Part shown: piece by piece, positions 44,456 through 59,714 of the stretch
How the letters are laid out: every line of letters begins with the position of its first letter
Numbering within the stretch: the stretch's first letter is position 1
Source of the DNA: a phage
Assembly (NCBI GenBank): GCA_037431425.1
Contig: GCA_037431425.1_4129.1
Strand: one strand, 5' to 3'
Length of the DNA stretch: 64,000 nucleotides
Notes under the pieces: generated by a model
The model's database searches: none
What the model was told of the DNA's origin: nothing
The model's input: only the letters and a program-made list of their open reading frames with translations
Program-made: the position numbers and the translations under genes

Positions 44456-44802
44456 TGTTTGAATCTTATCTTGACTTTTTAAGGAATAGTCCAGTAGCAC
44501 ACTCACTTGCTGGGATTGTTCTATCAGGCTATATCACATTTTGGGTAGTTATGTTTCTAGGATGGTATTTTAAACGACAATTCTATAAGCGTAACGGTGA
44601 AGATTTTATGAATTCTGCTATTAATCAATCGTTGTTTGCATCAACATTGATAGCATCAATTGTAGCAACACTCACTGGTGCAGTTCTACCAGCATTCGCC
44701 GCAGTTTACGGCACACTTGGAGTGGTATGTTTATCTTTTATATTGATCATTAAACTTTGTTGTGTTATGATTGAACTTCGAAATAAGATACCGGAGGAAT
44801 GA
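44455..44802 (+). CDS. small membrane protein, copy B3
   Basis: Tandem paralog; C-terminal LRNKIPEE. Confidence 0.55.
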   Translation: MFESYLDFLRNSPVAHSLAGIVLSGYITFWVVMFLGWYFKRQFYKRNGEDFMNSAINQSLFASTLIASIVATLTGAVLPAFAAVYGTLGVVCLSFILIIKLCCVMIELRNKIPEE

Positions 44803-45137
44803 TGGAGTATTTTATTGATTTACTGCCGTGGTATATGAAAGTGAGTATTTTATACTATATTATTAGTACTGGATTCTACTTCCTGATGTGGTTTTTTAAA
44901 CGACCAATTTCAGTGTACATCGCTGATAACATGCTGCAATTAAAATTACAAGCATGGTTTTATATGGCGATGTTTATGCCTATTATTCACTACTCAATGA
45001 TTAGTCTAGGTTTACGTTCTAATGGTGAACCAATTGTATTAGTATTCTATTGGGCTTCAACTCTAGTATATGTCGGTTTGTTGTTATACCCAATCGTTCA
45101 TATATTACGTGCTAAAGTTCCTGATGCGAGGTACTAA
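44799..45137 (+). CDS. small membrane protein, copy B4
   Basis: Tandem paralog; C-terminal LRAKVPDARY. Confidence 0.55.
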   Translation: MMEYFIDLLPWYMKVSILYYIISTGFYFLMWFFKRPISVYIADNMLQLKLQAWFYMAMFMPIIHYSMISLGLRSNGEPIVLVFYWASTLVYVGLLLYPIVHILRAKVPDARY

Positions 45138-45451
45138 TGGATATAGTAACATTGATTTACACGTTGTATTCATTCTATTTTATTATGTGTTGGATTGGAT
45201 TTTTATTTGTACTGAAGACGTTTGATTATGTTGAAAGACAGATAAAAGAATTTTGTATTCCTTTTATTGGGTCAACCATAATTAGTATTACTTGTTTGTA
45301 TTATTTGGTATGTGATCCACCAGATAACACTGCAATGATTGACTTTATGTTAGCACCAACTACTGTTATTTTTTTATGTAGTCTGCTGCCACCTATTAGT
45401 CGTGGGTTAGCAGAATTTAGACGCAAACAAAAGCTTAAACGAGGGATGTAA
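45137..45451 (+). CDS. small membrane protein, copy B5
   Basis: Tandem paralog; overlapping start/stop. Confidence 0.5.
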   Translation: MDIVTLIYTLYSFYFIMCWIGFLFVLKTFDYVERQIKEFCIPFIGSTIISITCLYYLVCDPPDNTAMIDFMLAPTTVIFLCSLLPPISRGLAEFRRKQKLKRGM

Positions 45452-45819
45452 TGGAAATCACACTTATTATATTAACTTCTATGTTGTTTATTAGTACAGT
45501 TGTTATTATTGGCAAGTTCTTCTGTGTATCCTTCTTGGAAACCGTATATGATGAAATTGCAGATGATTATGAATTAGAAGCAGGATTTTTTATTACGTAT
45601 TGGGTTAGTTTATTACTGCTTATCACAGTATGGGTTTTGCATATATTCCAATGGGGTATGGTTGGTGATGATCCATTACTGGGAATTATTTGTGCGACAT
45701 TTGGGCTACTGACTGGTGCTGCCCACAATCTGATAGTAATTGTGCAAACTATAAAATGCGTATTAGTTCCACATTTTCAGAGAATGCACCAAAACATTAA
45801 ACGCCGCAAACGAGGTTAA
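45451..45819 (+). CDS. small membrane protein, copy B6
   Basis: Tandem paralog. Confidence 0.5.
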   Translation: MEITLIILTSMLFISTVVIIGKFFCVSFLETVYDEIADDYELEAGFFITYWVSLLLLITVWVLHIFQWGMVGDDPLLGIICATFGLLTGAAHNLIVIVQTIKCVLVPHFQRMHQNIKRRKRG

Positions 45820-45820
45820 T

Positions 45821-46183
45821 ATGAACGGGATAGAGTTATCTGTGTTTGGTCAATCGCTAATAATTATTAATACTTTCTTTTTCTCACTTAATGCATTTAT
45901 GTGTATTGGGAAGTATTTTCATAAACGACCATTATCAAATATATATGATGTAATTCAAACGAGATATAGTCCAGCATATACTATAGTTATTAGCAGTTTC
46001 AATTTTGGTTTTGTTTTATTAGTAATTGGAATGTTAACATCAACGTTGAATATCATCACATTCGGTCTTATGATATGTTCATTGGCATTAACATTAGTTA
46101 TATGTTGTTTAGTACTACACCTTATGGTTCTATTATATTTAAAGATATATGCAATTCACCACCGCTTAGGTACGAGGAAATGA
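45821..46183 (+). CDS. small membrane protein, copy B7
   Basis: Tandem paralog. Confidence 0.5.
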   Translation: MNGIELSVFGQSLIIINTFFFSLNAFMCIGKYFHKRPLSNIYDVIQTRYSPAYTIVISSFNFGFVLLVIGMLTSTLNIITFGLMICSLALTLVICCLVLHLMVLLYLKIYAIHHRLGTRK

Positions 46184-46184
46184 T

Positions 46185-46556
46185 ATGAGTTATCGTGAAG
46201 TATTTTCTATAATTTCAATTATTATGTTCAGTGCTGGGACATTGATTTGGTTATTATACTTTTTCTGTATTAATCCAGTGTATAATATGTTATGCAATAT
46301 TAAATCAAGTACTGGCTATATGACCTTTATGATCTTTATGGGATATTATTGTCTAAGCATTTTAGGTGTTTTTTTGGTTGTTATATTTGATCTAGGACCA
46401 AACAGGGACGGTCTGCAAATGTATGAGTTAATAACTATGTTTGGGTGTATGATACCAACTGCACTAATGTTTGTAGCTATTGGTGCTGGATGTATAAAGT
46501 TATACAATTATTTAAAATCCATTCATCATTACATTCATAATAAACGTATGTCCTAA
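46185..46556 (+). CDS. small membrane protein, copy B8
   Basis: Tandem paralog. Confidence 0.5.
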   Translation: MSYREVFSIISIIMFSAGTLIWLLYFFCINPVYNMLCNIKSSTGYMTFMIFMGYYCLSILGVFLVVIFDLGPNRDGLQMYELITMFGCMIPTALMFVAIGAGCIKLYNYLKSIHHYIHNKRMS

Positions 46557-46601
46557 TAAAAATCCAGTACTATTAAGTACTGGATTATTTGAGGTAGAGC
46601 A

Positions 46602-47249
46602 ATGAAATCGAAATTAGGTTTGTTTTACAGTAATTATTTTGTTAAGCAGCGTAAATTTATAAAGAAATACTTCTCTACAGAGAAGTCCGGTCCTATAATT
46701 TTTAAAAGATCAAAATATTATACTTACTTAGCTGGTGTTAAACAGTCTAAAAAATTTATTGCTCTATTAAATAAAAATAAAGTGAAAGCTTCTTATGTTG
46801 AAACCAGAAAAAATTCCCCTATAACTCCTAGTGATTTTATTGAGTACGGGTGTTTTTATATTGAGAATAATGGTAACACCTATTTTATGGATATTGATTG
46901 TAATACATCGAATCTTTTTAACATTGTAATAAAACCATCAAAACAATATAATGTTTATGGTGATGCTAATATAAAATTGATCAAAAACAAAGATTGGTTT
47001 GATTTTGAAATAAATGTTTTAGATGAAAATTTTGATGAAGTGCCCAGTAAACCTGAAATATGTGATATTCTAAATAGTTTAAAAGGTAGTAGCTACAATA
47101 TACCATCTGATTTAATGTTTCAGTACTCTTTAATAGATAAAGATATTGAAGATTATATTGCGTGTGCTAAAATCTTGAATTATCTGTATGATGAATTTAA
47201 AAAGAGTTCTAAAATCACAGCATTCACACTTTATAATATTTCTATATAA
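46602..47249 (+). CDS. hypothetical protein (215 aa)
   Basis: Track ORF; SD gaggtaga; followed by bidirectional terminator. Confidence 0.6.
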   Translation: MKSKLGLFYSNYFVKQRKFIKKYFSTEKSGPIIFKRSKYYTYLAGVKQSKKFIALLNKNKVKASYVETRKNSPITPSDFIEYGCFYIENNGNTYFMDIDCNTSNLFNIVIKPSKQYNVYGDANIKLIKNKDWFDFEINVLDENFDEVPSKPEICDILNSLKGSSYNIPSDLMFQYSLIDKDIEDYIACAKILNYLYDEFKKSSKITAFTLYNISI

Positions 47250-47259
47250 TTTAAAATAT

Positions 47260-47290
47260 TAAAGCCAGTTCTCTCGTACTGGCTTTAATA
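47260..47290. terminator. bidirectional terminator between 46602..47249 (+) and the RCC1-like array (-)
   Basis: AAAGCCAGT-TCTCTCG-TACTGGCTTT with flanking A/T runs. Confidence 0.6.
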
Positions 47291-48436
47291 TTATTTTTTC
47301 CAAGGAAGTAACGAAGTTGGTATTTTGATAGGTATATTTGATGAAACAACATCAGGAAAATTTGCATCCCCACAAACATACAAATTATCGTCTTCGTCTA
47401 TCAATAATATATAGTTGTAACTTCTACAAAACCCATTTAAACCTCTTCCCTCTAATGCAGATAAATTTATTTCAGTGAATTGTGTTATATATGTTTCATT
47501 TGAACCAACACCACATTGACCATTAGCATTTATACCACAAGTAAGCAATTTATTATTGTTTTGAATTATACATGATGGTCCAGCAAGGTTTGTACCTAGT
47601 TCACCTACAACGTTGACCTCACCTTGTAATGATAAATTTGGAATCACTGTACTCATTGGGACACGAGATGTATTTCCAACACCTGCTTGTCCTGAACCAT
47701 TAGTGGATGCTACTTTAACAGTACCGTCATTAAGAAAAATATAAGATGTTTCGATTGTATTAACTGCTTGAGTAGCTGATGTTATTGACGTATCCTGTTT
47801 GAATTTGAGTACATTTGTTGTTGTCGAACCAGAGATATATGTAGCACCTGCGTACCAATATGTTCCATCCTGGAGTACTAAACCAGTACTTCTAATTGAA
47901 CACCCAGCACTTCGAACATTTTCTATATGACTATATGTAAAGGTTGATACAATTGAAGATTCACCATTACCAAATACCCCACCAGTACCTGCACCACAGA
48001 AAAACCATTTACCGTTTTTCAAAAATACACGCATACAAGCAGAAATAACCACACTATCAATATCACTTGCAGTTACACCAAAATCGGTAAAGAAATGAGT
48101 TATATCAATCCAATTGCCACCAGTATTTGATGGGAGATGTGGAATTACAACTCTAGTCCCTGTGTACCAGATTGTATCATCATCTTTAATAACAAGCGTA
48201 CCTTGAACACCCCCCCAATACCTGGTTACATTAGTATTAACAAGTGTCCACTCATTAGATGATTCCGTTGAGCCATTACCACCTTGACCATATGATGATG
48301 AACCGCACCAGTATAAATTGCCATTTTTATTTAAATAAAATTTTGCATCAGCCGAACATTGTAATCTGTATTTGAATACAGTTTTTGGTGCTGGTGCAAT
48401 ATTTGCATACTTAATCATTCTTCCAAAAGGTAACAT
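47291..48436 (-). CDS. RCC1-like repeat (beta-propeller-type) protein, paralog 1
   Basis: N-terminus MLPFGRMIKYANIAP shared by all seven; Gly/Ser/Thr/Asn-rich with GxNxxGQxG-type repeats; own SD gagggag and TATAAT upstream. Confidence 0.7.
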   Translation of the reverse strand: MLPFGRMIKYANIAPAPKTVFKYRLQCSADAKFYLNKNGNLYWCGSSSYGQGGNGSTESSNEWTLVNTNVTRYWGGVQGTLVIKDDDTIWYTGTRVVIPHLPSNTGGNWIDITHFFTDFGVTASDIDSVVISACMRVFLKNGKWFFCGAGTGGVFGNGESSIVSTFTYSHIENVRSAGCSIRSTGLVLQDGTYWYAGATYISGSTTTNVLKFKQDTSITSATQAVNTIETSYIFLNDGTVKVASTNGSGQAGVGNTSRVPMSTVIPNLSLQGEVNVVGELGTNLAGPSCIIQNNNKLLTCGINANGQCGVGSNETYITQFTEINLSALEGRGLNGFCRSYNYILLIDEDDNLYVCGDANFPDVVSSNIPIKIPTSLLPWKK

Positions 48437-48484
48437 AATTTCTCTCCCTCATTCATTATACTGTATTTAACCCAATTAAGAAAA

Positions 48485-48503
48485 GCCAGTATCAAGTACT
48501 GGT
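48485..48503 (-). terminator. intergenic hairpin between RCC1-like paralogs
   Basis: CCAGTA-TCAAG-TACTGG preceded by A-run on + (T-run on - strand). Confidence 0.55.
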
Positions 48504-48509
48504 ATTTTA

Positions 48510-49859
48510 TTATTGTAATGGAATTTCAGTGAGTGTTTTATATGTACTTCCGTTATACACCCCTCTCCAATATACTTTACCATCAGTACTAACCACTAAT
48601 AATCCATATGTTGTAAACCCAAGAGTACCACCAACATACATAGCATCTTTGATTCTAATACCAATGTCTTCATATGTAAATGACGCGACTGCACCCGCTT
48701 GCCATGAAGGACTAGCGTAGTAATCACTATAAACACCATGTGCTTTATATATTGATGTTGTTCCTGGTTCAAAAATGACAGTTCCACAGTAGTTCATTCG
48801 TATTTTAGTACTGGATGAAGTTGGTACATTTATACCTACATCATCTTTTATCCCTGTGGTTAGGACGTTAAAACCACCCGCCACACGGTTGACGTCATTC
48901 GCACCGATTAAATACATACCAACGTTGTAGCCCATATAAAACACACTAGAGCTTCCATTCCAGAAAGAAAAACCACCACCATTCCCACAGCGATATAGTT
49001 GTGAATTTGAGCAGTACATCATACCTTCGTTTGTCGCATCAAATTCATCTGCTTTTCCTATTGTAGCTACAGTAGTCCAAGTTTTAATTACTTGGTTTGT
49101 ACTAGCTGGTGTTTGTATACCATATCGTATATTATACCCTTTACCGACTATTGTACCATCTTCTAATTTGGCATAAAGTACAGGTCTATTACCAACAAAA
49201 TACATATTATTGTGTGACATGTCTATTGTGCATCTTAATGAAACTACTTTTTGTTTCAATTGATTATCTTTAGTAAAAGAAGTAAAGTAGTAATCTGATG
49301 TTGAGTTGTTTATTAAACCTTGTATTGACAACCCCATATACCAGATTTCTCCCTTACTATTCAAAGCTGCCAAAATACAACTATATTTTGAAGTGTATGT
49401 TGGGTTTACTGAAGTTGCTGGTCCTTTGTCATATCCACCACAGAATACCATCTCCACAACTTCACCTACGTTAGCAAAATAAGAAGATACATTGATAAAA
49501 CCATTTGTTATAAAAGGTGCTGTATTTATACTTGAATGTGTGAATATCCCATTTGCATATACACCACAAAAATGATATGAACCATCATTATCTTGGACTA
49601 TTATTCCATTTGATAGTAACCAAAAATTGTTTACATTTTTTCTTACTAATTCGATTCCTGCCCCATTAGTTGGCGTTATACCAAAAGAAACATATTTTGT
49701 TTGACCAATTCCATATAAATTTCCATTTGATGCTAATATTGCACCAAACCAATTACCACCACCATTCTTGTTATGACCCATACCTATAGAATCAAATTTC
49801 TTAACAGTAGGAGCTTGTACTTTGTTCCCATAATTCACCATTCTTCCAAAAGGTAACAT
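48510..49859 (-). CDS. RCC1-like repeat protein, paralog 2 (449 aa)
   Basis: Conserved N-terminus MLPFGRMVNYGN; upstream aaggaggg SD and TATAAT; terminator hairpin. Confidence 0.7.
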   Translation of the reverse strand: MLPFGRMVNYGNKVQAPTVKKFDSIGMGHNKNGGGNWFGAILASNGNLYGIGQTKYVSFGITPTNGAGIELVRKNVNNFWLLSNGIIVQDNDGSYHFCGVYANGIFTHSSINTAPFITNGFINVSSYFANVGEVVEMVFCGGYDKGPATSVNPTYTSKYSCILAALNSKGEIWYMGLSIQGLINNSTSDYYFTSFTKDNQLKQKVVSLRCTIDMSHNNMYFVGNRPVLYAKLEDGTIVGKGYNIRYGIQTPASTNQVIKTWTTVATIGKADEFDATNEGMMYCSNSQLYRCGNGGGFSFWNGSSSVFYMGYNVGMYLIGANDVNRVAGGFNVLTTGIKDDVGINVPTSSSTKIRMNYCGTVIFEPGTTSIYKAHGVYSDYYASPSWQAGAVASFTYEDIGIRIKDAMYVGGTLGFTTYGLLVVSTDGKVYWRGVYNGSTYKTLTEIPLQ

Positions 49860-49906
49860 ATTTCCCTCCTTTATTCATTATACTATATTTAATACTAAAA
49901 GAAAAA

Positions 49907-49925
49907 GCCAGTACAGAGTACTGGC
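49907..49925 (-). terminator. intergenic hairpin between RCC1-like paralogs
   Basis: GCCAGTAC-AGA-GTACTGGC; T-run on - strand. Confidence 0.6.
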
Positions 49926-49931
49926 ATTATT

Positions 49932-51083
49932 TTAAATTGGTGAATCTTCAACAAATATAGTACTAGCAGTACCACCTGATACTGGGTTAGTACCACTTGA
50001 ATATATTTTGTTTCCATCTGTCATATATGTTTTACCATAGCAACTTTGGATTTTAACATCTTTGAAATTCAAATCAGGAGTAATAGATTTAGTGTAAGTT
50101 AATACGTTAGTAGTTGAACCTGTACTTAATTGTCCATAGTATGAAGTTGCAGAGTTATTACCAGCAACGTATACGCCAGTATCAGTAATAACAAAGTTCG
50201 AGTAATATCCGTACCCATATCCTATATCTAATATATTTCCTTGTGGTTGATTTACCACTGCTGTTGTCAATATTTGGGTTGTAGCCCCAGTACCAGTCGC
50301 TGCCTGACCATATGTTTGGTCACCACCTGTGTACACTGAAACAACTGACGTGCTTTTGTTTCTTGCAATACCTTGCACCATTCCATTAATTGTACTTATA
50401 AATGCAATAGTGTTAACAGTTGCTGGTAATCTGGATGACAATGTGAAGAATTTATAAGAAGTAGGACCGTCAGTGTTCCCATAAACTTCACCTGTGTAAT
50501 ATAATCTACCACTTTCAGCAATAAATGAACACATGTTTATACCTGCAATAATCCTTTTCGGTATCGCACCAGTTGGTATAATTGATTGTACTAAAGTAGA
50601 AAAACTACTAGTATAAGAATAATTACCAAGCTGTCCTCTTGTGTTATAACCACCACACCAAATGGTCCCATTACTCATAAGTATTGAAATGAAGTTATTT
50701 CCTAGTGATATTTCTGTAATTGTTCCTTGTGATTTGACTTGGTTAATAACGGTTTGCATAGAAGTCCATGCATTAACAGATGACGTACCCATACACACAT
50801 TGTATTGTTGTCCTGTGTATTGATATGTCCCATCTGACTTGTGAATCATTGTAGCATACTGACCACACCATACATCAGTGACATCAGATGCAGTTACAGT
50901 CCATGATGATCTGGCTATATTGTCACCTAAACCCAACTGACCATTTGAATTGTTACCACGGGTGTATAACTTACCATTACTACCCAATACCATAACCCAG
51001 TTATACCCTGCAACTAATTTTTTAATGGCAGCAGGGGATGGTGCAACATTCCCATAATCAAACATTCTAACAAAAGGTAACAT
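49932..51083 (-). CDS. RCC1-like repeat protein, paralog 3
   Basis: N-terminus MLPFVRMFDYGNVAP; repeats such as GNNSNGQLGLGDN. Confidence 0.7.
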   Translation of the reverse strand: MLPFVRMFDYGNVAPSPAAIKKLVAGYNWVMVLGSNGKLYTRGNNSNGQLGLGDNIARSSWTVTASDVTDVWCGQYATMIHKSDGTYQYTGQQYNVCMGTSSVNAWTSMQTVINQVKSQGTITEISLGNNFISILMSNGTIWCGGYNTRGQLGNYSYTSSFSTLVQSIIPTGAIPKRIIAGINMCSFIAESGRLYYTGEVYGNTDGPTSYKFFTLSSRLPATVNTIAFISTINGMVQGIARNKSTSVVSVYTGGDQTYGQAATGTGATTQILTTAVVNQPQGNILDIGYGYGYYSNFVITDTGVYVAGNNSATSYYGQLSTGSTTNVLTYTKSITPDLNFKDVKIQSCYGKTYMTDGNKIYSSGTNPVSGGTASTIFVEDSPI

Positions 51084-51130
51084 ATTTCCCTCCTTTATTC
51101 ATTATACTATATTTAATACTAAAAGAAAAA

Positions 51131-51150
51131 GCCAGTACTTGAGTACTGGC
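51131..51150 (-). terminator. intergenic hairpin between RCC1-like paralogs
   Basis: GCCAGTACTTGAGTACTGGC; T-run on - strand. Confidence 0.6.
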
Positions 51151-51157
51151 TTTCTTA

Positions 51158-52348
51158 TTACAATTTTCTAGGTGTATCCAGAACATATCTATTTGTTTTA
51201 GGGCCACCATCATCATAAGTTCCGGTTGAATATATATTTTTCATATCAGCAGTTAGGAAAGTACGCAACGAACCGCGATATATTTTTATTTTATCATACA
51301 TAGAATATGTTATTTCTGACGGCAATGGACATGCAGTAAATTTACCAATGGTAGCATCATAACCAACACCCAATGTACCAGCATAACTACTCGCATTTAA
51401 ACCAGTTGCATATACACCTGCACTCGTAACTAGTATACTAGATTGTGCTGGGTATCCAGTATGGATTGAATAATAAGTACCAGGTGGCAATGTGGCACTA
51501 TTATTTCCTAAAACTCCATTAACATTGCTAGATGTAGTTTTATTTCCCCATGCTCCATTATTAGCTAATCCACCAACTAGAAACTGACGTGCTCCTGTAC
51601 TTGGATTCTCTACTAAAGCACTGACAGCACCAAATGAACAAACAGTATATTGTAATGTTTTTGTATATGTGGTACTTGGCTGATATAAAGTATATTCATT
51701 AAATGGTGTCCATGTGGTACTAGTACTTATGCCAGATGTAATACCACCAATATATAAATTATTTTGTTTATCAAACAACATTACACAGTTATATGTTGAC
51801 ATTATTTGTGCAATATCAACATCTGGTGTTACAGCTTTAACAAATGAGCCATCGGTTATTTGTTGAGTTTTTCCAGTACCATCTGCGAATTGTCTAGCAC
51901 TATTCCACCCTGTACTCCATATTGTATTATTATCCATTAAGAAAGTAAACCACGTAGTACCTGCATACATTTGTTTAATTGAAGTACTTGAACTTTGTTT
52001 GTACAAATTTTCAATATATTGGTTATAACTTAAAAACGTAGTAGTACTAGTTTCTAAACCAATATGACTACCATATCCACAATAAAAATAATTTAAGTCA
52101 TTATCTTGAACTAACAAAGTTCCTTGTGTCATCCAGCAATCTTTGATATTTTCTCTAATTAATGTCCACGACCTTACTGCATTATTATTTCCTCTACCAA
52201 ACTTCCCCCAACTATTACTGCCTCGTGCGTATAGTTGACCGTCGGTATAAAGTACAACAACCTCAGTATCAGTTGGTATTATTTTCTTAATTTGAAGTGG
52301 GACGGGTACAATATTCCCGTACTTAACTATTCTTCCAAAAGGTAACAT
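51158..52348 (-). CDS. RCC1-like repeat protein, paralog 4
   Basis: N-terminus MLPFGRIVKYGNIVP; repeat GSNSWGKFGRGNN. Confidence 0.7.
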   Translation of the reverse strand: MLPFGRIVKYGNIVPVPLQIKKIIPTDTEVVVLYTDGQLYARGSNSWGKFGRGNNNAVRSWTLIRENIKDCWMTQGTLLVQDNDLNYFYCGYGSHIGLETSTTTFLSYNQYIENLYKQSSSTSIKQMYAGTTWFTFLMDNNTIWSTGWNSARQFADGTGKTQQITDGSFVKAVTPDVDIAQIMSTYNCVMLFDKQNNLYIGGITSGISTSTTWTPFNEYTLYQPSTTYTKTLQYTVCSFGAVSALVENPSTGARQFLVGGLANNGAWGNKTTSSNVNGVLGNNSATLPPGTYYSIHTGYPAQSSILVTSAGVYATGLNASSYAGTLGVGYDATIGKFTACPLPSEITYSMYDKIKIYRGSLRTFLTADMKNIYSTGTYDDGGPKTNRYVLDTPRKL

Positions 52349-52391
52349 ATCCCCTCCTTATTCATTATACTATATTTAATCAAAAATAAAA

Positions 52392-52410
52392 GCCAGTATC
52401 AAGTACTGGC
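52392..52410 (-). terminator. intergenic hairpin between RCC1-like paralogs
   Basis: GCCAGTATCAAGTACTGGC. Confidence 0.6.
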
Positions 52411-52424
52411 ATAGTTTTATAATA

Positions 52425-53531
52425 TTATTTCGGCATCGTAATTGCAGACCATGAATTTGTAGTAATTGGACCTGGTATGTACACTAAAGAACCACATGCA
52501 TAAATTTGTCTATTCCCATCATACACAACACTAAAGTTAGTACAAGTAAACAATGACGAATTTAATGGATTGTAAGTATCTAATGTTAGTGTATTCACCC
52601 ACTTATTTGAACCTAGACCACCTGACCTACCAAATGCACCAGTACTGTATATCTTACCTTCAGTTGTTGCATATATATTAACATATGAAGTTGAACTGGA
52701 TTTAGCTATTTTATGTATCTTACTATCAATAGCACTGGAGTTAAATGTAAAAGGATATATTTCTACGTTAGTTGATGAACCATTACCGAGTTGACCAGAA
52801 TACTGCAAGCCAGCGACGTATGTACCACCACCTGAATATGCTATAGTACTAGTACTGTTACCTCCCATTATTTTAACACTAGTTAAACGACTTACTAAAG
52901 TAGTGTACTGACCTTTACTAACACCTAGTGAACCATAACTACTAGTACCACATCCAATAAGGTTACCGTTGGATGTTAAGATTAATGTGTTGTTTTGTGT
53001 ACCATATATATCAGCAACTTCATTTGTACCAGTATTCAGTACTAACACAAAAGCACTCTGTGAATTAGGATATCCACCACCGAGTGAATAGTTACTGTTC
53101 ATGCCTCTTCCATAAACCTTTGTACCACTAGCATCTACGTAGTGCATCGTATCTGAACCAATTGATATCATTTTAATATTAGATATGTGTGGAAATGAAG
53201 AAGTAACATCTAAACCACCCAAGGGGATTGCAGTATTACCCGTACCTAACTGAGAAGTAACTCCGTGCATTCTGAACTCTTCTCCTTTGAGATACAGAAG
53301 ATTGTACCCACCAGCCCATGCATCAGAAACACCCTCTGCAACTAATATCCAATTATTTTTTTCCGCTGTACCAACGGCATTCAACTGCCAATATGAATTA
53401 TCTCCACATCCATATAATGTACCATCACTATATAGTACGTACAAATTATTGGTTCCACAAAATACTTTCTTGATCGTTATACCTTCTGGAGCTATATTTC
53501 CATAGGTCATTATTCTTGCAAAAGGTAACAT
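52425..53531 (-). CDS. RCC1-like repeat protein, paralog 5
   Basis: N-terminus MLPFARIMTYGNIAP; repeat GDNSYWQLN. Confidence 0.7.
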   Translation of the reverse strand: MLPFARIMTYGNIAPEGITIKKVFCGTNNLYVLYSDGTLYGCGDNSYWQLNAVGTAEKNNWILVAEGVSDAWAGGYNLLYLKGEEFRMHGVTSQLGTGNTAIPLGGLDVTSSFPHISNIKMISIGSDTMHYVDASGTKVYGRGMNSNYSLGGGYPNSQSAFVLVLNTGTNEVADIYGTQNNTLILTSNGNLIGCGTSSYGSLGVSKGQYTTLVSRLTSVKIMGGNSTSTIAYSGGGTYVAGLQYSGQLGNGSSTNVEIYPFTFNSSAIDSKIHKIAKSSSTSYVNIYATTEGKIYSTGAFGRSGGLGSNKWVNTLTLDTYNPLNSSLFTCTNFSVVYDGNRQIYACGSLVYIPGPITTNSWSAITMPK

Positions 53532-53576
53532 ATCCCCTCCTTATTCATTATACTATATTTAATACAAATAAGAAAA

Positions 53577-53595
53577 GCCAGTATCAAGTACTGGC
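53577..53595 (-). terminator. intergenic hairpin between RCC1-like paralogs
   Basis: GCCAGTATCAAGTACTGGC. Confidence 0.6.
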
Positions 53596-53601
53596 CTATA
53601 T

Positions 53602-54771
53602 TTAAACTGGCGAATCTAATATAAATTCTAAACTACTAATGCCACCATATGTGACATCTGTTCCCGTGCTATATACAAAATTACCATCAGTTATATAAGT
53701 TCGGTTATAACTACCTGCCATCTGTGACTTACTATAATCAAACCCATCAGGTACGATTGCTTTGGTATATACTAATGCATTAGTAGATGTACCAATACCT
53801 AACATACCAGCTTGTGTAGATTGATTGTAGCCGCAACAATATATACCATCTGTTGTAGCAATAACTTGGTTATAATATGAAGTATTGTTAGCAATGCTTA
53901 CTACATCACCAGGTGGCATTAGTGATGCTGTTTGTACCTCAAATGCTCTATAATCTTTGAGAGAACCATCTTTCCCATCTGCTTGTGCACCAAATATTCT
54001 TGAACCACCATTTGCGATGATAGTTTTACCAGTAGGATCAGTGCCTATTGCCATTGCCATTGAAGTACCATTATTCACATAGTACTTTATATTAATTGTA
54101 TTACTTAAGCTGGTAGGAGCACCATAATATATATTATATAACTTACTTCCTGAACTTGTAACTGCATTGACTCTTCCTGTATAAAATAACCATCCTTGGT
54201 TTGTAACATAACCGTGCATTAAATTACTTGCAAACAATTTAACAGGTAATTGATTTGCTACGGTAGGAACAGTACTTTTGACGAATCTACCAGAAACATA
54301 GTTAATTGTTGTTCCATCACCCAACTGACCATCCGACCCTACTCCAGTACTCCATATTGTTTGGTCTGATAGTAACACACTTGTAGTCTGATAACTAATG
54401 GCTATATCTAATATTGGTAATGTTAATGTATTGAATATAGGCATAGCAGATGTCCATATTGATACTCCTGACCCTTTCATACCAACAGTTGTTGAACTTC
54501 CACTGTACCATATTTCATTATTGCTTTTCTTAACAACTATCGACGTGGCTCCCATCCAAAAATCTTCAACACCAGAAGTACTAAAAGTCCATGTAGTAAC
54601 AGTATTTTTGTGACCTAAACCCAAAATACCATATGCATTATCACCACGCACATATAAATCACCACTGTTTGTTAAAACAGCAACATTATCGTTGTTAGCA
54701 AGTATTTTTTTAATATTTGGTTTAGCAGGTGCAATATTCCCGTACTTAACCATCCTCGCAAAAGGTAACAA
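53602..54771 (-). CDS. RCC1-like repeat protein, paralog 6
   Basis: N-terminus MLPFARMVKYGNIAP; repeat GDNAYGILGLGHKN. Confidence 0.7.
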   Translation of the reverse strand: MLPFARMVKYGNIAPAKPNIKKILANNDNVAVLTNSGDLYVRGDNAYGILGLGHKNTVTTWTFSTSGVEDFWMGATSIVVKKSNNEIWYSGSSTTVGMKGSGVSIWTSAMPIFNTLTLPILDIAISYQTTSVLLSDQTIWSTGVGSDGQLGDGTTINYVSGRFVKSTVPTVANQLPVKLFASNLMHGYVTNQGWLFYTGRVNAVTSSGSKLYNIYYGAPTSLSNTINIKYYVNNGTSMAMAIGTDPTGKTIIANGGSRIFGAQADGKDGSLKDYRAFEVQTASLMPPGDVVSIANNTSYYNQVIATTDGIYCCGYNQSTQAGMLGIGTSTNALVYTKAIVPDGFDYSKSQMAGSYNRTYITDGNFVYSTGTDVTYGGISSLEFILDSPV

Positions 54772-54816
54772 AATTAAATCTCCAAAATTAAAATAATTAT
54801 ATAGTATTTACAAAAA

Positions 54817-54842
54817 TACCAGTACATATTTCAGTACTGGTA
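54817..54842 (-). terminator. intergenic hairpin between RCC1-like paralogs
   Basis: TACCAGTAC-ATATTTCA-GTACTGGTA. Confidence 0.55.
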
Positions 54843-54847
54843 TATTA

Positions 54848-55969
54848 TTAAAAGGGCAACGGTAACTCAGTAAAAGAACTTACGTCCGGTAAACCATACA
54901 TTGAATTAGCATCACCACAGTAATACCACTTCGTAGAATCATGTACCACCGATAAACGCAGTGCACATAACACTTCCTGTATGTCATTAAACACCATCGG
55001 GACTAACTCATATGTATCTGCAAATGAAGATACACCACCACTCGCATGAAAAGTATTTGTCCCAGCATAAAATAACTGATTAGTGTTCTTACCCACAGCA
55101 AATGTAATCAAATTCCCATCATTCTCCCATAAAGAAGAAAACTTATCAACACTACCAGAAAGCTCTGTGTAAGTACTCGTAATGGCATTAACCGCCGCCG
55201 CATTACCCATCTGTTTATTCAAGTTCTGCCCAGCAATAAAATATCTCGTTCGTGCACTAGAATCAGTATATAATAACCCAGTGTTCGTGGTCATCATTCC
55301 AATGTCCTTAATCGTCATACCAGGCTGTGAATAACTTAGATACGAAGTTAAATTAACATTATTACCCAACGAACCGTTAGAACTCATGCCACAACGATGT
55401 AATATACCACTTGTATCAACGTAGATAGTACTAACACCACTCGTATACAACTCTTGTACATTATTCGCAATAAACACAGCAGTCGCCTTATTACTAACCC
55501 CACCAAATGATAGGTTATTATCAAATCCCTTAGCGTATAATTGATTATTAGTAGTCAATAATCCAATCGTGTAATAAGACATTTTCATATCCCTTACTGT
55601 ACTCAAATCTACTGCCCCAAATTGATACGTAACATCTGTCCATTTGAAAATCTGTGCACTACCAACACCACCCGTTTCAAACCATTTGTCACCACAGTAC
55701 AATATGCGATTATCCTTAGTAAAGATAACTGTTAACGCTCCACTACCACACGCAAACTTTACATCACTTCTAACCTTCGTCCAATCACGTACATAGGTAG
55801 TGGTGTTATTACCTATACCTAACTTGCCATAACGGTTATAACCACGCACCCATAAATCACCACTCTTAGTAATTAATAGTAATGCGTCTCCTGTACTTAT
55901 TATTCGAAATCCCGATCTAGGATCAGGTACAATATTCCCGTACTTAACCATTCTCCCAAAAGGTAACAT
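54848..55969 (-). CDS. RCC1-like repeat protein, paralog 7
   Basis: N-terminus MLPFGRMVKYGNIVP; repeat GYNRYGKLGIGNN; first gene of the minus-strand array. Confidence 0.7.
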   Translation of the reverse strand: MLPFGRMVKYGNIVPDPRSGFRIISTGDALLLITKSGDLWVRGYNRYGKLGIGNNTTTYVRDWTKVRSDVKFACGSGALTVIFTKDNRILYCGDKWFETGGVGSAQIFKWTDVTYQFGAVDLSTVRDMKMSYYTIGLLTTNNQLYAKGFDNNLSFGGVSNKATAVFIANNVQELYTSGVSTIYVDTSGILHRCGMSSNGSLGNNVNLTSYLSYSQPGMTIKDIGMMTTNTGLLYTDSSARTRYFIAGQNLNKQMGNAAAVNAITSTYTELSGSVDKFSSLWENDGNLITFAVGKNTNQLFYAGTNTFHASGGVSSFADTYELVPMVFNDIQEVLCALRLSVVHDSTKWYYCGDANSMYGLPDVSSFTELPLPF

Positions 55970-56013
55970 AATTCCCTCCTTTATTCATTATATCATATTT
56001 ACCCAAAAAACAC

Positions 56014-56042
56014 TTGACACCCTTTCAGTACTGTTGTACGAT
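56014..56042 (+). promoter_or_regulatory. sigma70-type promoter (TTGACA-N17-TACGAT) at the head of the small-ORF array
   Basis: Lies in the divergent region between the RCC1-like array and the small-ORF array; contains CAGTACTG. Confidence 0.5.
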
Positions 56043-56067
56043 AGAAGGAATATTAGGAGAACTACAC

Positions 56068-56295
56068 ATGACAAATACCCTTAAGTACTACCTCAATACT
56101 CTGCCCGACCTAGAGTACGGGAAGTTTCTCGCAGATAGTTCGTGGCTGATTGAGCTAAAAACACATAACAGCCCTGGATGCACCCTTATGATGAACAATG
56201 CTATTGATACCCTTATAGTGAGTATTTTACATAGCAATATCTACAAGGATAACAATAAACAATTAACAAAAATATTAGTACTGCTATCTCTATGA
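56068..56295 (+). CDS. small protein, first member of tandem small-ORF array
   Basis: Track ORF 56014..56295 trimmed to ATG 56068 with SD taggaga, downstream of promoter 56014..56042. Confidence 0.5.
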   Translation: MTNTLKYYLNTLPDLEYGKFLADSSWLIELKTHNSPGCTLMMNNAIDTLIVSILHSNIYKDNNKQLTKILVLLSL

Positions 56296-56495
56296 ATATC
56301 GAACAGTTCTACATCAATGCACTACCAACTAAAAGTCTTCAAGAAAGCCTACTGTATACACAAAAGAATTTTAAAAACTTCAAACGTTGCCCTAAACTAC
56401 TGAACTCGTACATGAATAATATCATAAGAAATGTTTTACAAGGAGAAGAAAGTATGCAATACTATCACATCATTATCCTTATATTGGAGTACTAA
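56292..56495 (+). CDS. small array protein (about 67 aa)
   Basis: Track ORF; ATGA junction; hydrophobic C-terminus YHIIILILEY. Confidence 0.5.
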   Translation: MNIEQFYINALPTKSLQESLLYTQKNFKNFKRCPKLLNSYMNNIIRNVLQGEESMQYYHIIILILEY

Positions 56496-56496
56496 T

Positions 56497-56706
56497 ATGA
56501 ATACCGAACATAAAGAATTCTACACCAAATACCTCAGCAACGAAGAACAATTGTTTCTAAGAAGTGTATCACCTTTACGTATAGATACACCACACGCCAG
56601 AGAATGCTTTAATAATTGTATACGTAGTACCCTAGAAGCAATCGAATATAATAACAAAAATATTATGTACTCCAGTTTAATCGGACTAATATACTTCTAT
56701 GAATAA
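56497..56706 (+). CDS. small array protein (HKEFY...LIYFYE type)
   Basis: Track ORF 56431..56706 trimmed to ATG 56497 after upstream stop; near-paralog of 59716..59925. Confidence 0.5.
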   Translation: MNTEHKEFYTKYLSNEEQLFLRSVSPLRIDTPHARECFNNCIRSTLEAIEYNNKNIMYSSLIGLIYFYE

Positions 56707-56890
56707 TCATAAAGATTTCTATTGCAGTAAACTACACAAACAATACAGAGATTCATTTCCCAATGAACCTATGGATATGAATAGTCCCTTTTATAACTTT
56801 GACTTCAGACTGGAGACACGTTATGCAATAGAACATCAATTTCCTGAAACTAAGTACTTATCTATCATGAACCTCATCTTTAAGTTCTAA
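56699..56890 (+). CDS. small array protein
   Basis: Track ORF; HKDFY N-terminal motif. Confidence 0.45.
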   Translation: MNNHKDFYCSKLHKQYRDSFPNEPMDMNSPFYNFDFRLETRYAIEHQFPETKYLSIMNLIFKF

Positions 56891-56942
56891 AAGGTGCACC
56901 AAGGACAGAGTATTTTAATATAGTAAGGCTAATTACACTACC

Positions 56943-57128
56943 ATGAATCACATAAGCTACTACTACCAACAACTATCCGACAGAGACAAGTACAGTCACA
57001 ACTCCCATGTGTGGTACTACAAACGCGGCAGTATAAGAGACAAACATCATTACTTCAGTGCTGCTATAACAGAAGTACTAACAACTAAGTACACGTACAG
57101 AGCAGTACTGAAACTTATCTCTATATAA
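56943..57128 (+). CDS. small array protein, LKLISI subfamily
   Basis: Track ORF; C-terminal YTYRAVLKLISI. Confidence 0.5.
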   Translation: MNHISYYYQQLSDRDKYSHNSHVWYYKRGSIRDKHHYFSAAITEVLTTKYTYRAVLKLISI

Positions 57129-57136
57129 GGTACTAT

Positions 57137-57322
57137 ATGAATACATTTGAGTACTATACCAATAAACTATCTATGCCTGAAAGATCTCATCTCTATGTGT
57201 GGAGAAATGCGTATAAAAACGGAAATAAACTTATACAAAGAAATTCCCTTACAGTGTGTACCAATTTAATTAACGCAGAGTACCGCACATATATTGAAGT
57301 ACTGAAACTCATCTCTATCTAA
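57137..57322 (+). CDS. small array protein, LKLISI subfamily
   Basis: Track ORF; NTFEYY N-terminus; C-terminal YIEVLKLISI. Confidence 0.5.
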   Translation: MNTFEYYTNKLSMPERSHLYVWRNAYKNGNKLIQRNSLTVCTNLINAEYRTYIEVLKLISI

Positions 57323-57330
57323 GGTACTCT

Positions 57331-57510
57331 ATGCAAGAATTCTATATCTATAATCTCCAGCACAAAGATAGATACAACTATAATCAATTCCAAAGGTACT
57401 ACACCGTCGGGAACATCAAAGATAAAAAACGATACCTACTATCATGTACTGTAGATGCACAAAACAAAAAGTACACGTACAGAGAAGTACTGAAACTAAT
57501 TTCTATTTGA
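57331..57510 (+). CDS. small array protein, LKLISI subfamily (59 aa)
   Basis: Manually found, just under the track cutoff; C-terminal YTYREVLKLISI. Confidence 0.45.
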   Translation: MQEFYIYNLQHKDRYNYNQFQRYYTVGNIKDKKRYLLSCTVDAQNKKYTYREVLKLISI

Positions 57511-57518
57511 GGTAATAT

Positions 57519-57707
57519 ATGAATACTTTTGAGTACTACTTCAATAAACTAAATTCCATAGAACAAAATATGTACAATTCATATATTAAGTACTATCAAT
57601 CATCTGCACCTGGAATTAAAAATATATCAATAAAGATTATCACTAACCGTGTACTGACATCTGAACGTTATATGTATATGGATGCACTGAAACTCATCTC
57701 TATGTAA
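57519..57707 (+). CDS. small array protein, LKLISI subfamily
   Basis: Track ORF; NTFEYY N-terminus; C-terminal ALKLISM. Confidence 0.5.
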   Translation: MNTFEYYFNKLNSIEQNMYNSYIKYYQSSAPGIKNISIKIITNRVLTSERYMYMDALKLISM

Positions 57708-57717
57708 GGAATAAACT

Positions 57718-57897
57718 ATGAACAATTTCTATATAGAACACATAACCATAAAAGACCGTTTCATGTACGACACCTTCGTGAAGTACTACAACCTCGCAAC
57801 TAACAGTACTAAAAATATCAATCTCAATAGCTGCATACACCAAGCACTAACAAAAGAAAATCCCTTCAGGGAAATCCTTGCACTTGCATCTGTATAA
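57718..57897 (+). CDS. small array protein (59 aa)
   Basis: Manually found; C-terminal FREILALASV. Confidence 0.4.
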   Translation: MNNFYIEHITIKDRFMYDTFVKYYNLATNSTKNINLNSCIHQALTKENPFREILALASV

Positions 57898-57907
57898 AGG
57901 AATTCAA

Positions 57908-58573
57908 ATGAAACTTAATCCACAAAGTAAACAATACCTTAAGCACTTTAAGTACCTCAACAGTATTCAAGCAGAATCTATTACATCTTCTTATACTTAT
58001 CACCCGAATATACTAAAGAAACGAAATAAAAAGAATAAATCCAGTACAGATCTAGTATCAAAGAACCTCAAATCGTACTTGAAGAAAAATAATATCTCTA
58101 TTCATTGTGCGAATATCTATAATACTGATTTAAAAGCATTGAGTACTAATACCAGCACAAAAACACTAAAGAATACATCTATCTATATCTATATGCACCT
58201 GGATAATATCCCGTGCACTATAATTCTATCTTTCGGGAATGTATACTTCTTCGGGAATTGTAATACCACCCATGATATCCGTACAGCACAATTCCAAATC
58301 GGAGATATGTACTGCATGGGTTCAGAAAAAATACACGATAACATGCATTTCTTCCAACAGCAACGTACAGAAGAAACTAATACAGTACTAGAATTCCTCA
58401 AAGAACTTCAAAACAAAGAATTATCTCAAGAAGAACTATTCATGTACAGCACCGTAATCAATAATCCAGAACTCTACAAAAACGCGTACAATCTAACAAA
58501 ACATGTGCAGGAACTTATTAGTACTAATAAGAAAATTCATCACCTCATGACATATATTGCAAACTATGCATAA
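57908..58573 (+). CDS. hypothetical protein (about 221 aa) embedded in the small-ORF array
   Basis: Track ORF 57878..58573 trimmed to ATG 57908 with SD aaaggaa. Confidence 0.55.
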   Translation: MKLNPQSKQYLKHFKYLNSIQAESITSSYTYHPNILKKRNKKNKSSTDLVSKNLKSYLKKNNISIHCANIYNTDLKALSTNTSTKTLKNTSIYIYMHLDNIPCTIILSFGNVYFFGNCNTTHDIRTAQFQIGDMYCMGSEKIHDNMHFFQQQRTEETNTVLEFLKELQNKELSQEELFMYSTVINNPELYKNAYNLTKHVQELISTNKKIHHLMTYIANYA

Positions 58574-58751
58574 AGAATACTACCAAAATAAACTCCCAAT
58601 GCATCTACAACACCTTGTACCAACAGAACCATTGGGTATAGAAAAAGACTACGAAAAAGACTACTTCATTAAGTGCACCAAATCCTCAATAGATATTGAG
58701 GACTATAATCGAGTACTGTATCACATCCTTTTACTAATATATAAGTACTAA
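58566..58751 (+). CDS. small array protein, KEYYQNKLPM subfamily
   Basis: Track ORF 58557..58751 (TTG) trimmed to ATG 58566; C-terminal LLLIYKY. Confidence 0.5.
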   Translation: MHKEYYQNKLPMHLQHLVPTEPLGIEKDYEKDYFIKCTKSSIDIEDYNRVLYHILLLIYKY

Positions 58752-58752
58752 T

Positions 58753-58947
58753 ATGAATAATGAATACTATAAAGAATACTACCAAAATAAACTCCCTATG
58801 TATCTACAACACCTTATACCAACAAAACCTATTGGCATAAAAGATCATGAAAAAATAATGTTCCAACAATGTTCTAAGTACATCCTAATAGACGATCACA
58901 ATCCATATATGCTGTACTATATAATAATGCTAACATTCAGGTACTAA
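58753..58947 (+). CDS. small array protein, KEYYQNKLPM subfamily
   Basis: Track ORF; close paralog of 58566..58751. Confidence 0.55.
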   Translation: MNNEYYKEYYQNKLPMYLQHLIPTKPIGIKDHEKIMFQQCSKYILIDDHNPYMLYYIIMLTFRY

Positions 58948-58948
58948 T

Positions 58949-59131
58949 ATGCACAAAGAATACTACACACAATTTCTCCCCAGTATATTTGAACACTACG
59001 CCAGATATAAAGTCCCACTGGATAACGATTTGGCAGTACTCGGATTCAATAACTGCATAGAACGCAGTATAGAAAATAGTAGTTCATATGACCAACTATA
59101 TAACACTATCCTACTTATATTCAGGTACTAA
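58949..59131 (+). CDS. small array protein
   Basis: Track ORF; HKEYY N-terminus; C-terminal LLIFRY. Confidence 0.5.
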   Translation: MHKEYYTQFLPSIFEHYARYKVPLDNDLAVLGFNNCIERSIENSSSYDQLYNTILLIFRY

Positions 59132-59132
59132 T

Positions 59133-59321
59133 ATGTTTAAAGAATACTACGCAAAATATTTCCCAATGTATCTCAGAACTAATCTATTAGATAAACCTCG
59201 CGATATCAATGCTCAAAACGATAAAGTGTACTTTATTATGTGCACTAAAGCATGTATACTAGATCATGACAGCTACCATCGAGTACTCTATCATACACTG
59301 TACCTAACATTCGTGTACTAA
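59133..59321 (+). CDS. small array protein
   Basis: Track ORF 59088..59321 trimmed to ATG 59133; FKEYY N-terminus. Confidence 0.5.
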   Translation: MFKEYYAKYFPMYLRTNLLDKPRDINAQNDKVYFIMCTKACILDHDSYHRVLYHTLYLTFVY

Positions 59322-59331
59322 AGAGAACATT

Positions 59332-59526
59332 ATGCAACACAAGTTCAAAGAATTCTACTTAAGCCGCCTGGAACTAAACTCCCAAATGCTTATACCACTA
59401 AAACCAATAGATATCAAGGATAAGAAAAATACCCAACAATTCATCTACCATACACAGTGTGCTATCTCCCCAGATTATAATACATATAAATTGTACTATA
59501 TCATCGCCCTAATACTCAGGTACTAA
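59332..59526 (+). CDS. small array protein
   Basis: Track ORF; FKEFY N-terminus; C-terminal ALILRY. Confidence 0.5.
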   Translation: MQHKFKEFYLSRLELNSQMLIPLKPIDIKDKKNTQQFIYHTQCAISPDYNTYKLYYIIALILRY

Positions 59527-59528
59527 TC

Positions 59529-59714
59529 ATGTATAAAGAATACTACACACAATTTGTTAAAGAAAACTACAAATATGCCGTCCCCATAAAACCCTTAAAT
59601 GCTAATGACCCAAATACTATATTCCTGTTTAATGACGCAATACGTACAGTACTCAATACTAAAGATGAACAAGTGCAGTACGTATTCTTACTTTTACTTA
59701 TATACAGACACTAA
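59529..59714 (+). CDS. small array protein
   Basis: Track ORF; YKEYY N-terminus; C-terminal LLLIYRH. Confidence 0.5.
   Translation: MYKEYYTQFVKENYKYAVPIKPLNANDPNTIFLFNDAIRTVLNTKDEQVQYVFLLLLIYRH

Follow-up and report, generated by a model that had tools for sequence, protein, structure and literature searches.

A tandem array of RCC1-like genes with a shared N-terminal leader as candidate exchangeable binding modules of a jumbo-phage virion

Why would a phage keep seven tandem genes whose products begin alike and then diverge widely, and where would such proteins act? The question is raised by positions 47291–55969 of a 64,000-nucleotide (nt) stretch of phage DNA (GenBank assembly GCA_037431425.1, contig GCA_037431425.1_4129.1), which is termed the window below. 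The array comprises seven intact minus-strand open reading frames (ORFs) of 368–449 amino acids (aa), which lie exactly where an earlier note on this DNA had placed seven consecutive paralogs; the pairwise identity among their products is 19–25%. In the reading preferred here, to which a probability of about one half is assigned, the genes would encode late-made, interchangeable binding modules that are held on the virion exterior by a common N-terminal leader and are shuffled by cassette recombination. The source phage is an Asteriusvirus, a jumbo myophage of E. coli like 121Q, PBECO4 and phAPEC6, with phage ph0011 as the closest DNA match (97% identity, 76% of the query region covered).

Clustering of the bodies at ≥55% identity resulted in 26 types across the seven genomes compared. 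A leader (MLPFGRMVKYGNIVP in the first gene) followed by a predicted RCC1-like propeller is encoded by gene 1 in the order of transcription (54848–55969, type K, 373 aa), by gene 2 (53602–54771, type I, 389 aa), which has a TTG start, and by gene 7, the last transcribed (47291–48436, type B, 381 aa). Gene 3 (52425–53531, type F, 368 aa) and gene 5 (49932–51083, type P, 383 aa) are both missing from ph0011. Gene 4 (51158–52348, type A, 396 aa) represents the sole body type present in all seven genomes, and gene 6 (48510–49859, type Q, 449 aa) is highly divergent. Six of the seven proteins were matched by the Pfam RCC1, RCC1_2 and RCC1-like domain models (PF00415, PF13540 and PF25390); the whole-domain model PF25390 remained below its 150-bit cut-off and the repeat models exceeded theirs for five array genes. 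Gene 6 yielded no Pfam match. The four window genes scanned against PHROG profiles matched phrog_4219 with E-values of 4e-96, 5e-65, 1e-56 and, for gene 6, 1.6e-13. The artefact considered by the earlier note, namely fragments of one gene split by sequencing errors, was rejected since each paralog has full-length orthologues in other phages, with ratios of nonsynonymous to synonymous substitution (dN/dS) of 0.14–0.44. Split genes were observed in other records: in 121Q (9090–13911) and JP4 (2888–6159) several array genes are divided where other phages have one full-length gene, for example 121Q_234/235, 236/237 and 239/240, owing to pseudogenisation or sequencing frameshifts.

The AlphaFold2 model of gene 5, obtained with a 32-sequence alignment, is a seven-bladed RCC1-like propeller with a predicted local distance difference test score (pLDDT) of 89.7 and a predicted template-modelling score of 0.88. 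The propeller begins at about residue 20, and residues 1–20 form a lower-confidence extension with a short helix. Foldseek aligned this model best with UVR8 (TM score 0.80, E-value 4e-24), followed by the RCC1-like domains of RPGR, HERC2 and RCC1, and a family profile search returned HERC2, UVR8, RPGR and RCC1 at 1e-54 to 1e-70, with BLIP-II among the sequence matches. The β-propeller fold that the earlier note had proposed is thus borne out by the model. The model of gene 6 has a pLDDT of 60.7, and its best matches are still RCC1-like propellers, with TM scores of 0.52–0.63; it lends weak support because its alignment included RCC1 paralogues. On these models all seven bodies are probably seven-bladed RCC1-like β-propellers or very divergent versions of them. 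They also appear to be monomeric, being predicted as single-chain propellers that have neither a β-helix nor a trimerisation module. Eukaryotic RCC1, UVR8, RPGR and the RCC1-like domains of HERC2, as well as BLIP-II, share the seven-bladed propeller and a GxxGQLG-type repeat signature with the phage proteins, which are ~20% identical to the eukaryotic domains and differ from them in adding a specific N-terminal leader and, according to mass spectrometry (MS) of relatives, in being virion components.

The leader is the most constant part of the array proteins. All seven start MLPF-R(M/I)--Y(G/A)N, with M1, L2, P3, F4, R6, Y10 and N12 invariant and a mean pairwise identity of 0.76 over residues 1–12. 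Conservation was followed further in a census of the arrays of seven Asteriusvirus genomes, which contain 72 leader genes. L2, P3, F4 and R6 are invariant in 72/72, and Y10, G11, N12 and P15 are kept while their codons change synonymously (TAC/TAT, GGG/GGA, AAT/AAC and CCT/CCA), which argues that the leader peptide itself is under selection. Codons 2–4 are near-invariant even at synonymous positions (TTA CCT TTT in 70 of the 72 genes), pointing to an extra nucleotide-level constraint or to gene conversion. Neither a conserved Glu at alignment positions 1–40 nor a T4-type (L/I)xE motif was found in or after the leader.

The leader, with the consensus M-(L/I)-P-F-x-R-(M/I)-x-x-Y-G-N over 12–15 residues, was found in four lineages of Rak2-like jumbo phages. 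Besides Asteriusvirus these are Salmonella phage Munch (17 leader genes, MIPF-RIL-YGN), Yersinia phage fHe-Yen9-04 (5 leader genes, MLPF(P/S)(I/V)I) and Cronobacter phage GAP32, in which gp001 is the one leader gene (MLPFSRIIQYGN). Homologous propellers elsewhere carry leaders of their own, MLEM(L/M)NLG in W70 and M(F/Y)PIP-L-L in CR9, PVP-SE1 and GAP31. The near-invariant N-terminus described in the earlier note therefore holds for the window; in relatives it is not specific to RCC1 bodies. Five Asteriusvirus arrays encode a 245-aa Gly-rich protein with the leader (phrog_4474, no RCC1 signal), and in Munch the leader precedes Gly_rich_2, a Laminin_G_3/ConA-like lectin domain and phrog_6011, annotated as 'virion structural protein'. 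These non-RCC1 leader genes (Munch 7422–8225, 11962–12663 and 18578–19225; 121Q 16426–17163) carry Gly_rich_2/phrog_4474, phrog_6011 and Laminin_G_3/ConA-like lectin bodies; neither the Gly-rich body, designated type D, nor the Munch lectin body gave sequence matches in the PDB. The 245-aa Gly-rich type is 95–100% conserved among Asteriusvirus genomes, unlike its neighbours. A short lineage-specific tag that is conserved beyond its cargo and is borne by unrelated folds behaves like an address or docking element. The leader thus behaves as a portable tag, and it defines the family better than the RCC1 fold does.

Published proteomic data place relatives of the array proteins in virions. In phAPEC6, gp003, 005, 006, 007, 009, 010, 549 and 551 are among the 62 virion proteins identified by MS (Table 1 of the phAPEC6 paper), and all eight were confirmed as array members. 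The Gly-rich gp004 could not be scored in that study because it is annotated as a 303-nt fragment only. The supplement of the JP4 virion MS study contains three MLPF-leader proteins, which were located by the leader string as they bear no RCC annotation there. GAP32 gp001 was identified by MS as a structural protein in virions (CBB paper). In the unrelated, ~137-kb Vequintavirinae phage W70, the tandem products W70_237–239, which belong to phrog_4219, are virion components with 141–233 spectra each. The proteomic check proposed in the earlier note is therefore positive in four relatives, covering three lineages and three laboratories, and by analogy with these orthologues and paralogues the array proteins of the window are probably virion-associated.

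Each array gene of the window is preceded by its own regulatory unit. On the minus strand the plan consists of a (G)CCAGTAC-loop-(G)TACTGG(C) hairpin, a T-run, the element TAAATAnnnTATAAT (TAAATA-nnn-TATAAT) and an AGGAGG-type Shine-Dalgarno (SD) sequence. Five of the six spacers carry it. The canonical cassettes are located at 53532–53601 (hairpin 53575–53597, T-run, TAAATATAGTATAAT at 53547–53561, then AAGGAGGGG), 52349–52424 (hairpin 52392–52410, promoter motif 52364–52378, SD), 51084–51157 (hairpin 51126–51155 with −18 kcal/mol, promoter motif 51101–51115, SD) and 49860–49931 (hairpin 49907–49925, promoter motif 49877–49891, SD). The cassette at 48437–48509 has a slightly degenerate hairpin (48486–48502), the promoter motif TAAATACAGTATAAT at 48455–48469 and the SD GAGGGAGAG. 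The remaining spacer, 54772–54847, upstream of the TTG-initiated gene 2, is a diverged version (hairpin 54816–54843, T-run, TAAATACTATATAAT at 54796–54810, weak SD GGAG), which in other phages accompanies the 3' ends of genes of type K or O. Gene 1 borders on a divergent promoter region and therefore has no array hairpin; its upstream segment (55970–56013) retains the promoter TAAATATGATATAAT at 55987–56001, then AAGGAGGG, and this flank is the same in all genomes whatever body follows. At the other end of the array, a bidirectional terminator hairpin of the same stem family (47255–47292) separates gene 7 from the convergent plus-strand gene 46602–47249.

The hairpin pattern yielded 13 matches where 0 were expected, with folding energies of −6.6 to −18 kcal/mol and z scores of −3 to −7.5. 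The ungapped nucleotide identity of the cassettes (0.63) was not used, as small indels lower it. The earlier note had assigned every gene its own terminator-promoter-SD unit, which is correct for the window, apart from gene 1 with promoter and SD only, and does not extend to the whole family. Among the 72 gene starts, 49 have hairpin and promoter, 7 the first-gene flank, 11 tight operon-type junctions and 5 partial units, so the cassette is not obligatory: 11/72 genes in seven genomes are without it. The terminator stem CCAGTAC...GTACTGG also occurs outside the array after plus-strand genes (2980–2995 and 46564–46583), and the phage apparently reuses one stem sequence, with variable loops, for many terminators.

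Within the window, the composite promoter is nearly confined to the array. Its eight exact copies all lie on the minus strand, and seven of them precede the seven array genes. The eighth, TAAATAnnnTATAAT at 15994–16008, lies directly upstream of 14817–15971 (minus strand), which encodes a virion structural protein of phrog_10468, the orthologue of phAPEC6 gp077; it shares the array promoter class and is without the leader. In phAPEC6 virions gp077 was detected with 10 peptides at 37.8% coverage, and the composite motif is kept upstream of the phAPEC6 gene as well. Both hexamers and their exact three-base spacing are retained even in diverged cassettes, the first hexamer as (A/T/G)TAAATA. The TATAAT without a canonical −35 reported in the earlier note is correct as regards the −35, none being present at the array promoters; the bare TATAAT has to be replaced by the invariant TAAATA-nnn-TATAAT. 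Only the composite motif is specific. A simple sigma-70 promoter scan was uninformative (85 hits, 89 expected), 15 occurrences of the plain 13-mer TAGTATAATGAAT in the window, against 8.8 expected, do not amount to significant enrichment, and no Rfam family was detected in 44–64 kb.

The first half of the composite promoter matches the T4-type late promoter core of the genus. In phAPEC6, whose annotation includes a gene for a gp55-like late sigma factor, the motif (T/C/A)ATAAATA is found upstream of genes for the head, the portal region, the baseplate and the tail, and this T4-type late motif has also been proposed for CBB and GAP32 (CBB paper). We infer from the motifs that the array and the gp077 orthologue may share a promoter class of their own, serving genes of virion proteins which lie as opposite-strand islands in an early-type region. 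A separate observation in phAPEC6 concerns the regions upstream of gp225c, the major head protein gene, and of gp228c: the major capsid gene late promoter TATAAATA sits inside the inverted repeat TTTTTCAGT..TATAAATA..ACTGAAAAA, and CAGTAC/GTAC motifs are found again beside several late promoters as well as in the hairpins of the array.

The array occupies one syntenic position, with a plus-strand gene of 215 aa on one side and a series of ~60-aa genes on the other, and these flanks are kept in ph0011, 121Q, UE-S1, G17, WPEC5 and JP4. The number of leader genes at this site is 5 in ph0011, 7 in the window, 9 in UE-S1, 12 in 121Q, 12–13 in G17, ~13 in JP4, ~14 in phAPEC6, 14 in WPEC5, which has one more RCC1-like gene past the flanking gene, and 17 in Munch, so the variation in copy number that the earlier note had proposed to look for spans 5 to 17. 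These census numbers derive from tblastn and direct reading of the loci; word-indexed protein searches gave few relatives (17 and 54). Between near-identical isolates the array is among the largest differing blocks, and its genes rank among the most divergent. The window order K-I-F-A-P-Q-B is unlike that of every other genome compared. Relative to ph0011 it contains exactly two one-gene insertions, genes 3 and 5 (types F and P), edged by cassette repeats of ~111 and ~103 nt; the junction overlaps of 111 and 103 nt equal the length of a cassette plus leader. The leader variants VRMFDY, ARMMNY and GRMVKY are spread independently of body type. The dN/dS values given above indicate purifying selection and dS reaches up to 0.9; the diversity therefore stems from sorting and exchange of old alleles and not from fast point mutation. 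In place of the hypervariable positions that the earlier note had proposed to map, the presence, absence and reshuffling of anciently diverged cassettes were found. Positive selection as a source of the diversity is unsupported at the whole-gene level.

The PeSL cassettes of T4-type phages provide the closest regulatory parallel (PMC2839356, PMC4122927). In these, too, a terminator hairpin and a promoter are repeated between the genes of a hyperplastic region, and indels between close relatives start and end in the repeats. PeSL cassettes, however, contain an early sigma-70 promoter and separate unrelated ORFans, whereas the array cassettes combine a late-type TAAATA core with TATAAT, have no −35, and separate paralogues of one virion-protein family. 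Because the array repeat runs through the SD into the first ~12 codons, it also swaps the protein leader, unlike PeSL.

A mechanism can be proposed from these observations. The array would be transcribed from its dedicated composite promoter TAAATA-nnn-TATAAT and, given the late core that this contains, the proteins would be made during particle assembly. The leader would bring each protein into the particle by docking at one common site, and the bodies would be interchangeable monomeric binding heads outside the virion, associated with the tail, the baseplate or the fibres. Exposed in this way, such heads would give each phage a mixture of binding specificities. The repeated unit of ~100–115 nt, comprising terminator hairpin, promoter, SD and the first ~12 codons, would provide each gene with autonomous expression and would also serve as the homology tracts for unequal recombination, by which cassettes would be added, deleted and reordered and leaders exchanged between bodies. 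The architecture of conserved anchor and variable body, as described in the earlier note, stands and fits a diversified family whose members would act by binding.

An exterior position is suggested by homologues and by analogy. In the Vequintavirinae (Seunavirus, Certrevirus) the tail-fibre module ends with the homologue, which is encoded on its strand, and PVP-SE1 gp40 has an extra Big_2 Ig-like domain and is annotated in PHROG as 'tail protein'. The BFVD contains RCC1-like propellers in Pseudomonas phage proteins annotated as tail fibre, one of them with a T7-tail-fibre N-terminal domain. Lineage-specific N-terminal docking peptides of 7–11 residues are an established means of attaching secondary receptor-binding proteins, including in the RaK2/K64-1 group (PMC6872550), and this attachment was validated experimentally in 2026 (PMC13352976). 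The array resembles the systems of K1-5/K1E/SP6 and of the KP32, KP34, Menlow and PhiK64-1/RaK2 groups in that a short lineage-specific N-terminal peptide is joined to unrelated, exchanged bodies, several such proteins occur per virion, and the principle is present in the jumbo relatives RaK2 and K64-1. The known bodies, however, are trimeric β-helix depolymerases encoded in the tail module, whereas the array encodes apparently monomeric propellers, with lectin and Gly-rich bodies in relatives, at a separate locus, and their exterior placement is proposed here.

Several points weigh against this interpretation. No experiment puts any family member on the particle exterior, and MS in the relatives gives presence only, often from 1–5 peptides. 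No solved phage structure with an RCC1-like chain was retrieved by fold or profile search. The array lies among small early-type genes and not in the structural module, and the three W70 paralogues are likewise distant from the tail genes. Known docking-peptide receptor-binding proteins are trimeric tailspikes, and the array bodies look monomeric, without a trimerisation domain. The known docking systems use a T4gp10-like branching domain as partner; none was identified by Pfam scan of phAPEC6 gp240, 244, 245, 247 and 248, the five baseplate and tail proteins scanned, in which a T4 gp15-like sheath stabiliser was the only match. Promoter class and timing rest on motifs, and the composite motif does not occur in the 50-kb main structural block of phAPEC6, so that it may define a distinct temporal class. 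The array proteins are also not simply 'the hairs', because CBB has tail hairs with terminal globules and is yet reported to be without the RCC1-like family (CBB paper). Finally, the T4 internal proteins have exactly this architecture too, in which very diverse bodies share a short N-terminal tag.

This last resemblance leads to the most substantial alternative, in which the proteins would be internal head cargo. As a capsid-targeting sequence, the leader would load a variable set of binding proteins onto the scaffold core; ejected later together with the DNA, these would bind host factors, for example defence systems, or inhibit them. The T4 internal proteins IPI, IPII, IPIII and Alt are a diverse set sharing only the capsid targeting sequence, a conserved N-terminal tag of ~10 residues on highly diverse packaged bodies, and their genes are polymorphic among close relatives. 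Genes for T4-like head morphogenesis, a prohead core protease among them, are present in the phages considered here, phAPEC6 has an inner body, and each paralogue is of low abundance in MS. The array is situated, like the T4 internal protein genes, in a hyperplastic region among small genes, with PeSL-like cassettes and with the divergence between near-identical phages noted above, and RCC1-like propellers can inhibit proteins tightly, BLIP-II being among the sequence matches. The T4 capsid targeting sequence ends at a Glu that is cut by the prohead protease, whereas the array leader is neither accompanied by a conserved Glu site nor followed by a T4-type cleavage motif, and it precedes large β-propellers with lectin or Ig-type relatives. 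Big_2 Ig-like, ConA-like lectin and Gly-rich domains are typical of exposed virion proteins, the Vequintavirinae homologues end the tail-fibre module, and in other phages RCC1-like propellers are joined, by annotation, to tail-fibre N-terminal domains. Moreover, propellers of 40 kDa would need to unfold in order to traverse the tail tube. Internal cargo is accordingly judged unlikely, with a sizeable share of doubt.

Two further explanations dispense with an exterior position. The proteins could be non-structural and intracellular, engaged in host takeover or anti-defence, and merely contaminate virion preparations, with the conserved 5' end arising by gene conversion of a regulatory and translation-initiation cassette. 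The near-invariance of codons 2–4 in 70/72 genes is what nucleotide-level constraint or conversion predicts, some MS identifications consist of one peptide, and the array sits among early-type genes. Contamination is nevertheless improbable given that three laboratories detected such proteins independently in four phages of three lineages, W70 yielding as many as 233 spectra; residues 10–15 stay constant through synonymous change, as expected of selection on the peptide; the leader is kept across genera on bodies <30% identical, often at junctions without a cassette; and the promoter is common to the gene of a bona fide virion protein. The other explanation underlies the current GenBank names, namely that the proteins condense DNA or form an inner body organising the packaged 350-kb genome. 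The phAPEC6 authors put it forward as speculation, on the grounds of the chromatin binding of RCC1 and of the inner body visible by cryo-EM, and the proteins are indeed present in virions. The idea follows the name of the eukaryotic founder; the fold itself serves generally as a scaffold for binding. Nothing points to Ran-GEF or chromatin functions in the phage proteins, and their median pI of 6.8 (range 5.1–9.2) argues against histone-like DNA binding. Ran is not known from bacteria. An essential packaging role is, moreover, hard to square with a copy number of 5 to 17, with at least 26 body types that can replace one another, with the lack of the family in CBB and with bodies other than RCC1 under the same leader. 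The 'DNA condensation' label is thus name-driven and poorly supported, and a condensing role is considered very improbable.

Beyond the preferred exterior reading, a more general proposal is advanced tentatively. The leader could serve Rak2-like jumbo phages in general as a 'virion address tag', plugging any soluble domain (β-propeller, lectin or Gly-rich adhesin-like domain) into a common particle site, with the tag-plus-regulatory cassette as the recombination handle for trading these modules between phages; the virion would then be a strain-specific mosaic of monomeric binding heads or ejected inhibitors.

The family as such is not new. Multi-copy homologues of GAP32 gp001 were listed for 121Q and PBECO4 in the CBB paper (2017), and eleven RCC1-like proteins were counted in the phAPEC6 paper, so that a multi-copy RCC1-like family in 121Q, PBECO4 and phAPEC6 had been published between 2017 and 2020. 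The window array belongs to this family (phrog_4219) and to the same syntenic locus, and is a further member with a new repertoire. Published accounts treat the proteins solely as RCC1-domain proteins with a guessed role in DNA condensation. In the literature searched, neither the common leader and its occurrence on other folds, nor the cassettes with their promoter, nor the indels bounded by them were found described. What is new is the redefinition of the system as a leader-tagged, cassette-shuffled set of probable virion proteins with what may be its own promoter class, together with two testable mechanisms.

Other features of the window were recorded in passing. Adjoining the array and divergent from it, 56014–60326 (plus strand) contains ~20 tandem small paralogous genes of 59–77 aa, whose products share M..EYY..KL close to the N-terminus and end with LKLISI or L(I/T)FRY motifs. 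The GC skew of this segment is −0.20 to −0.28 and the AT skew +0.18 to +0.20, the reverse of other plus-strand genes; arrays of such genes, in varying copy number, also flank the RCC1-like array in ph0011, 121Q, UE-S1, G17, WPEC5 and JP4. On the other side, 44799–46556 (plus strand) encodes five paralogous hydrophobic, probably membrane, proteins of 104–123 aa, with overlapping or abutting starts and stops; the ph0011 and 121Q counterparts comprise 8–9 genes. The ~2 kb at 60330–62350 have slightly raised GC and no convincing ORF, tRNA or Rfam family, and an unannotated gap occupies the equivalent position in 121Q, G17 and UE-S1. Six tRNA genes (Ser-TGA, Arg-TCT, Ser-GCT, Met-CAT, Asn-GTT and Thr-TGT) are located at 6153–9988.

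Asteriusvirus phages are under development for therapy against pathogenic E. coli. If the array proteins are binding heads displayed on the virion, the array would be a determinant of host range or adsorption that is hidden by the 'DNA condensation' annotation, and the leader would offer a ready means of equipping a jumbo-phage particle with engineered specificities. As ejected cargo, in contrast, the proteins would constitute a new class of large β-propeller effectors. The GenBank product names are misleading under either reading. Should the leader prove to be a general address tag, these phages would possess a mode of host-range or counter-defence diversification that is undescribed for Gram-negative myophages.

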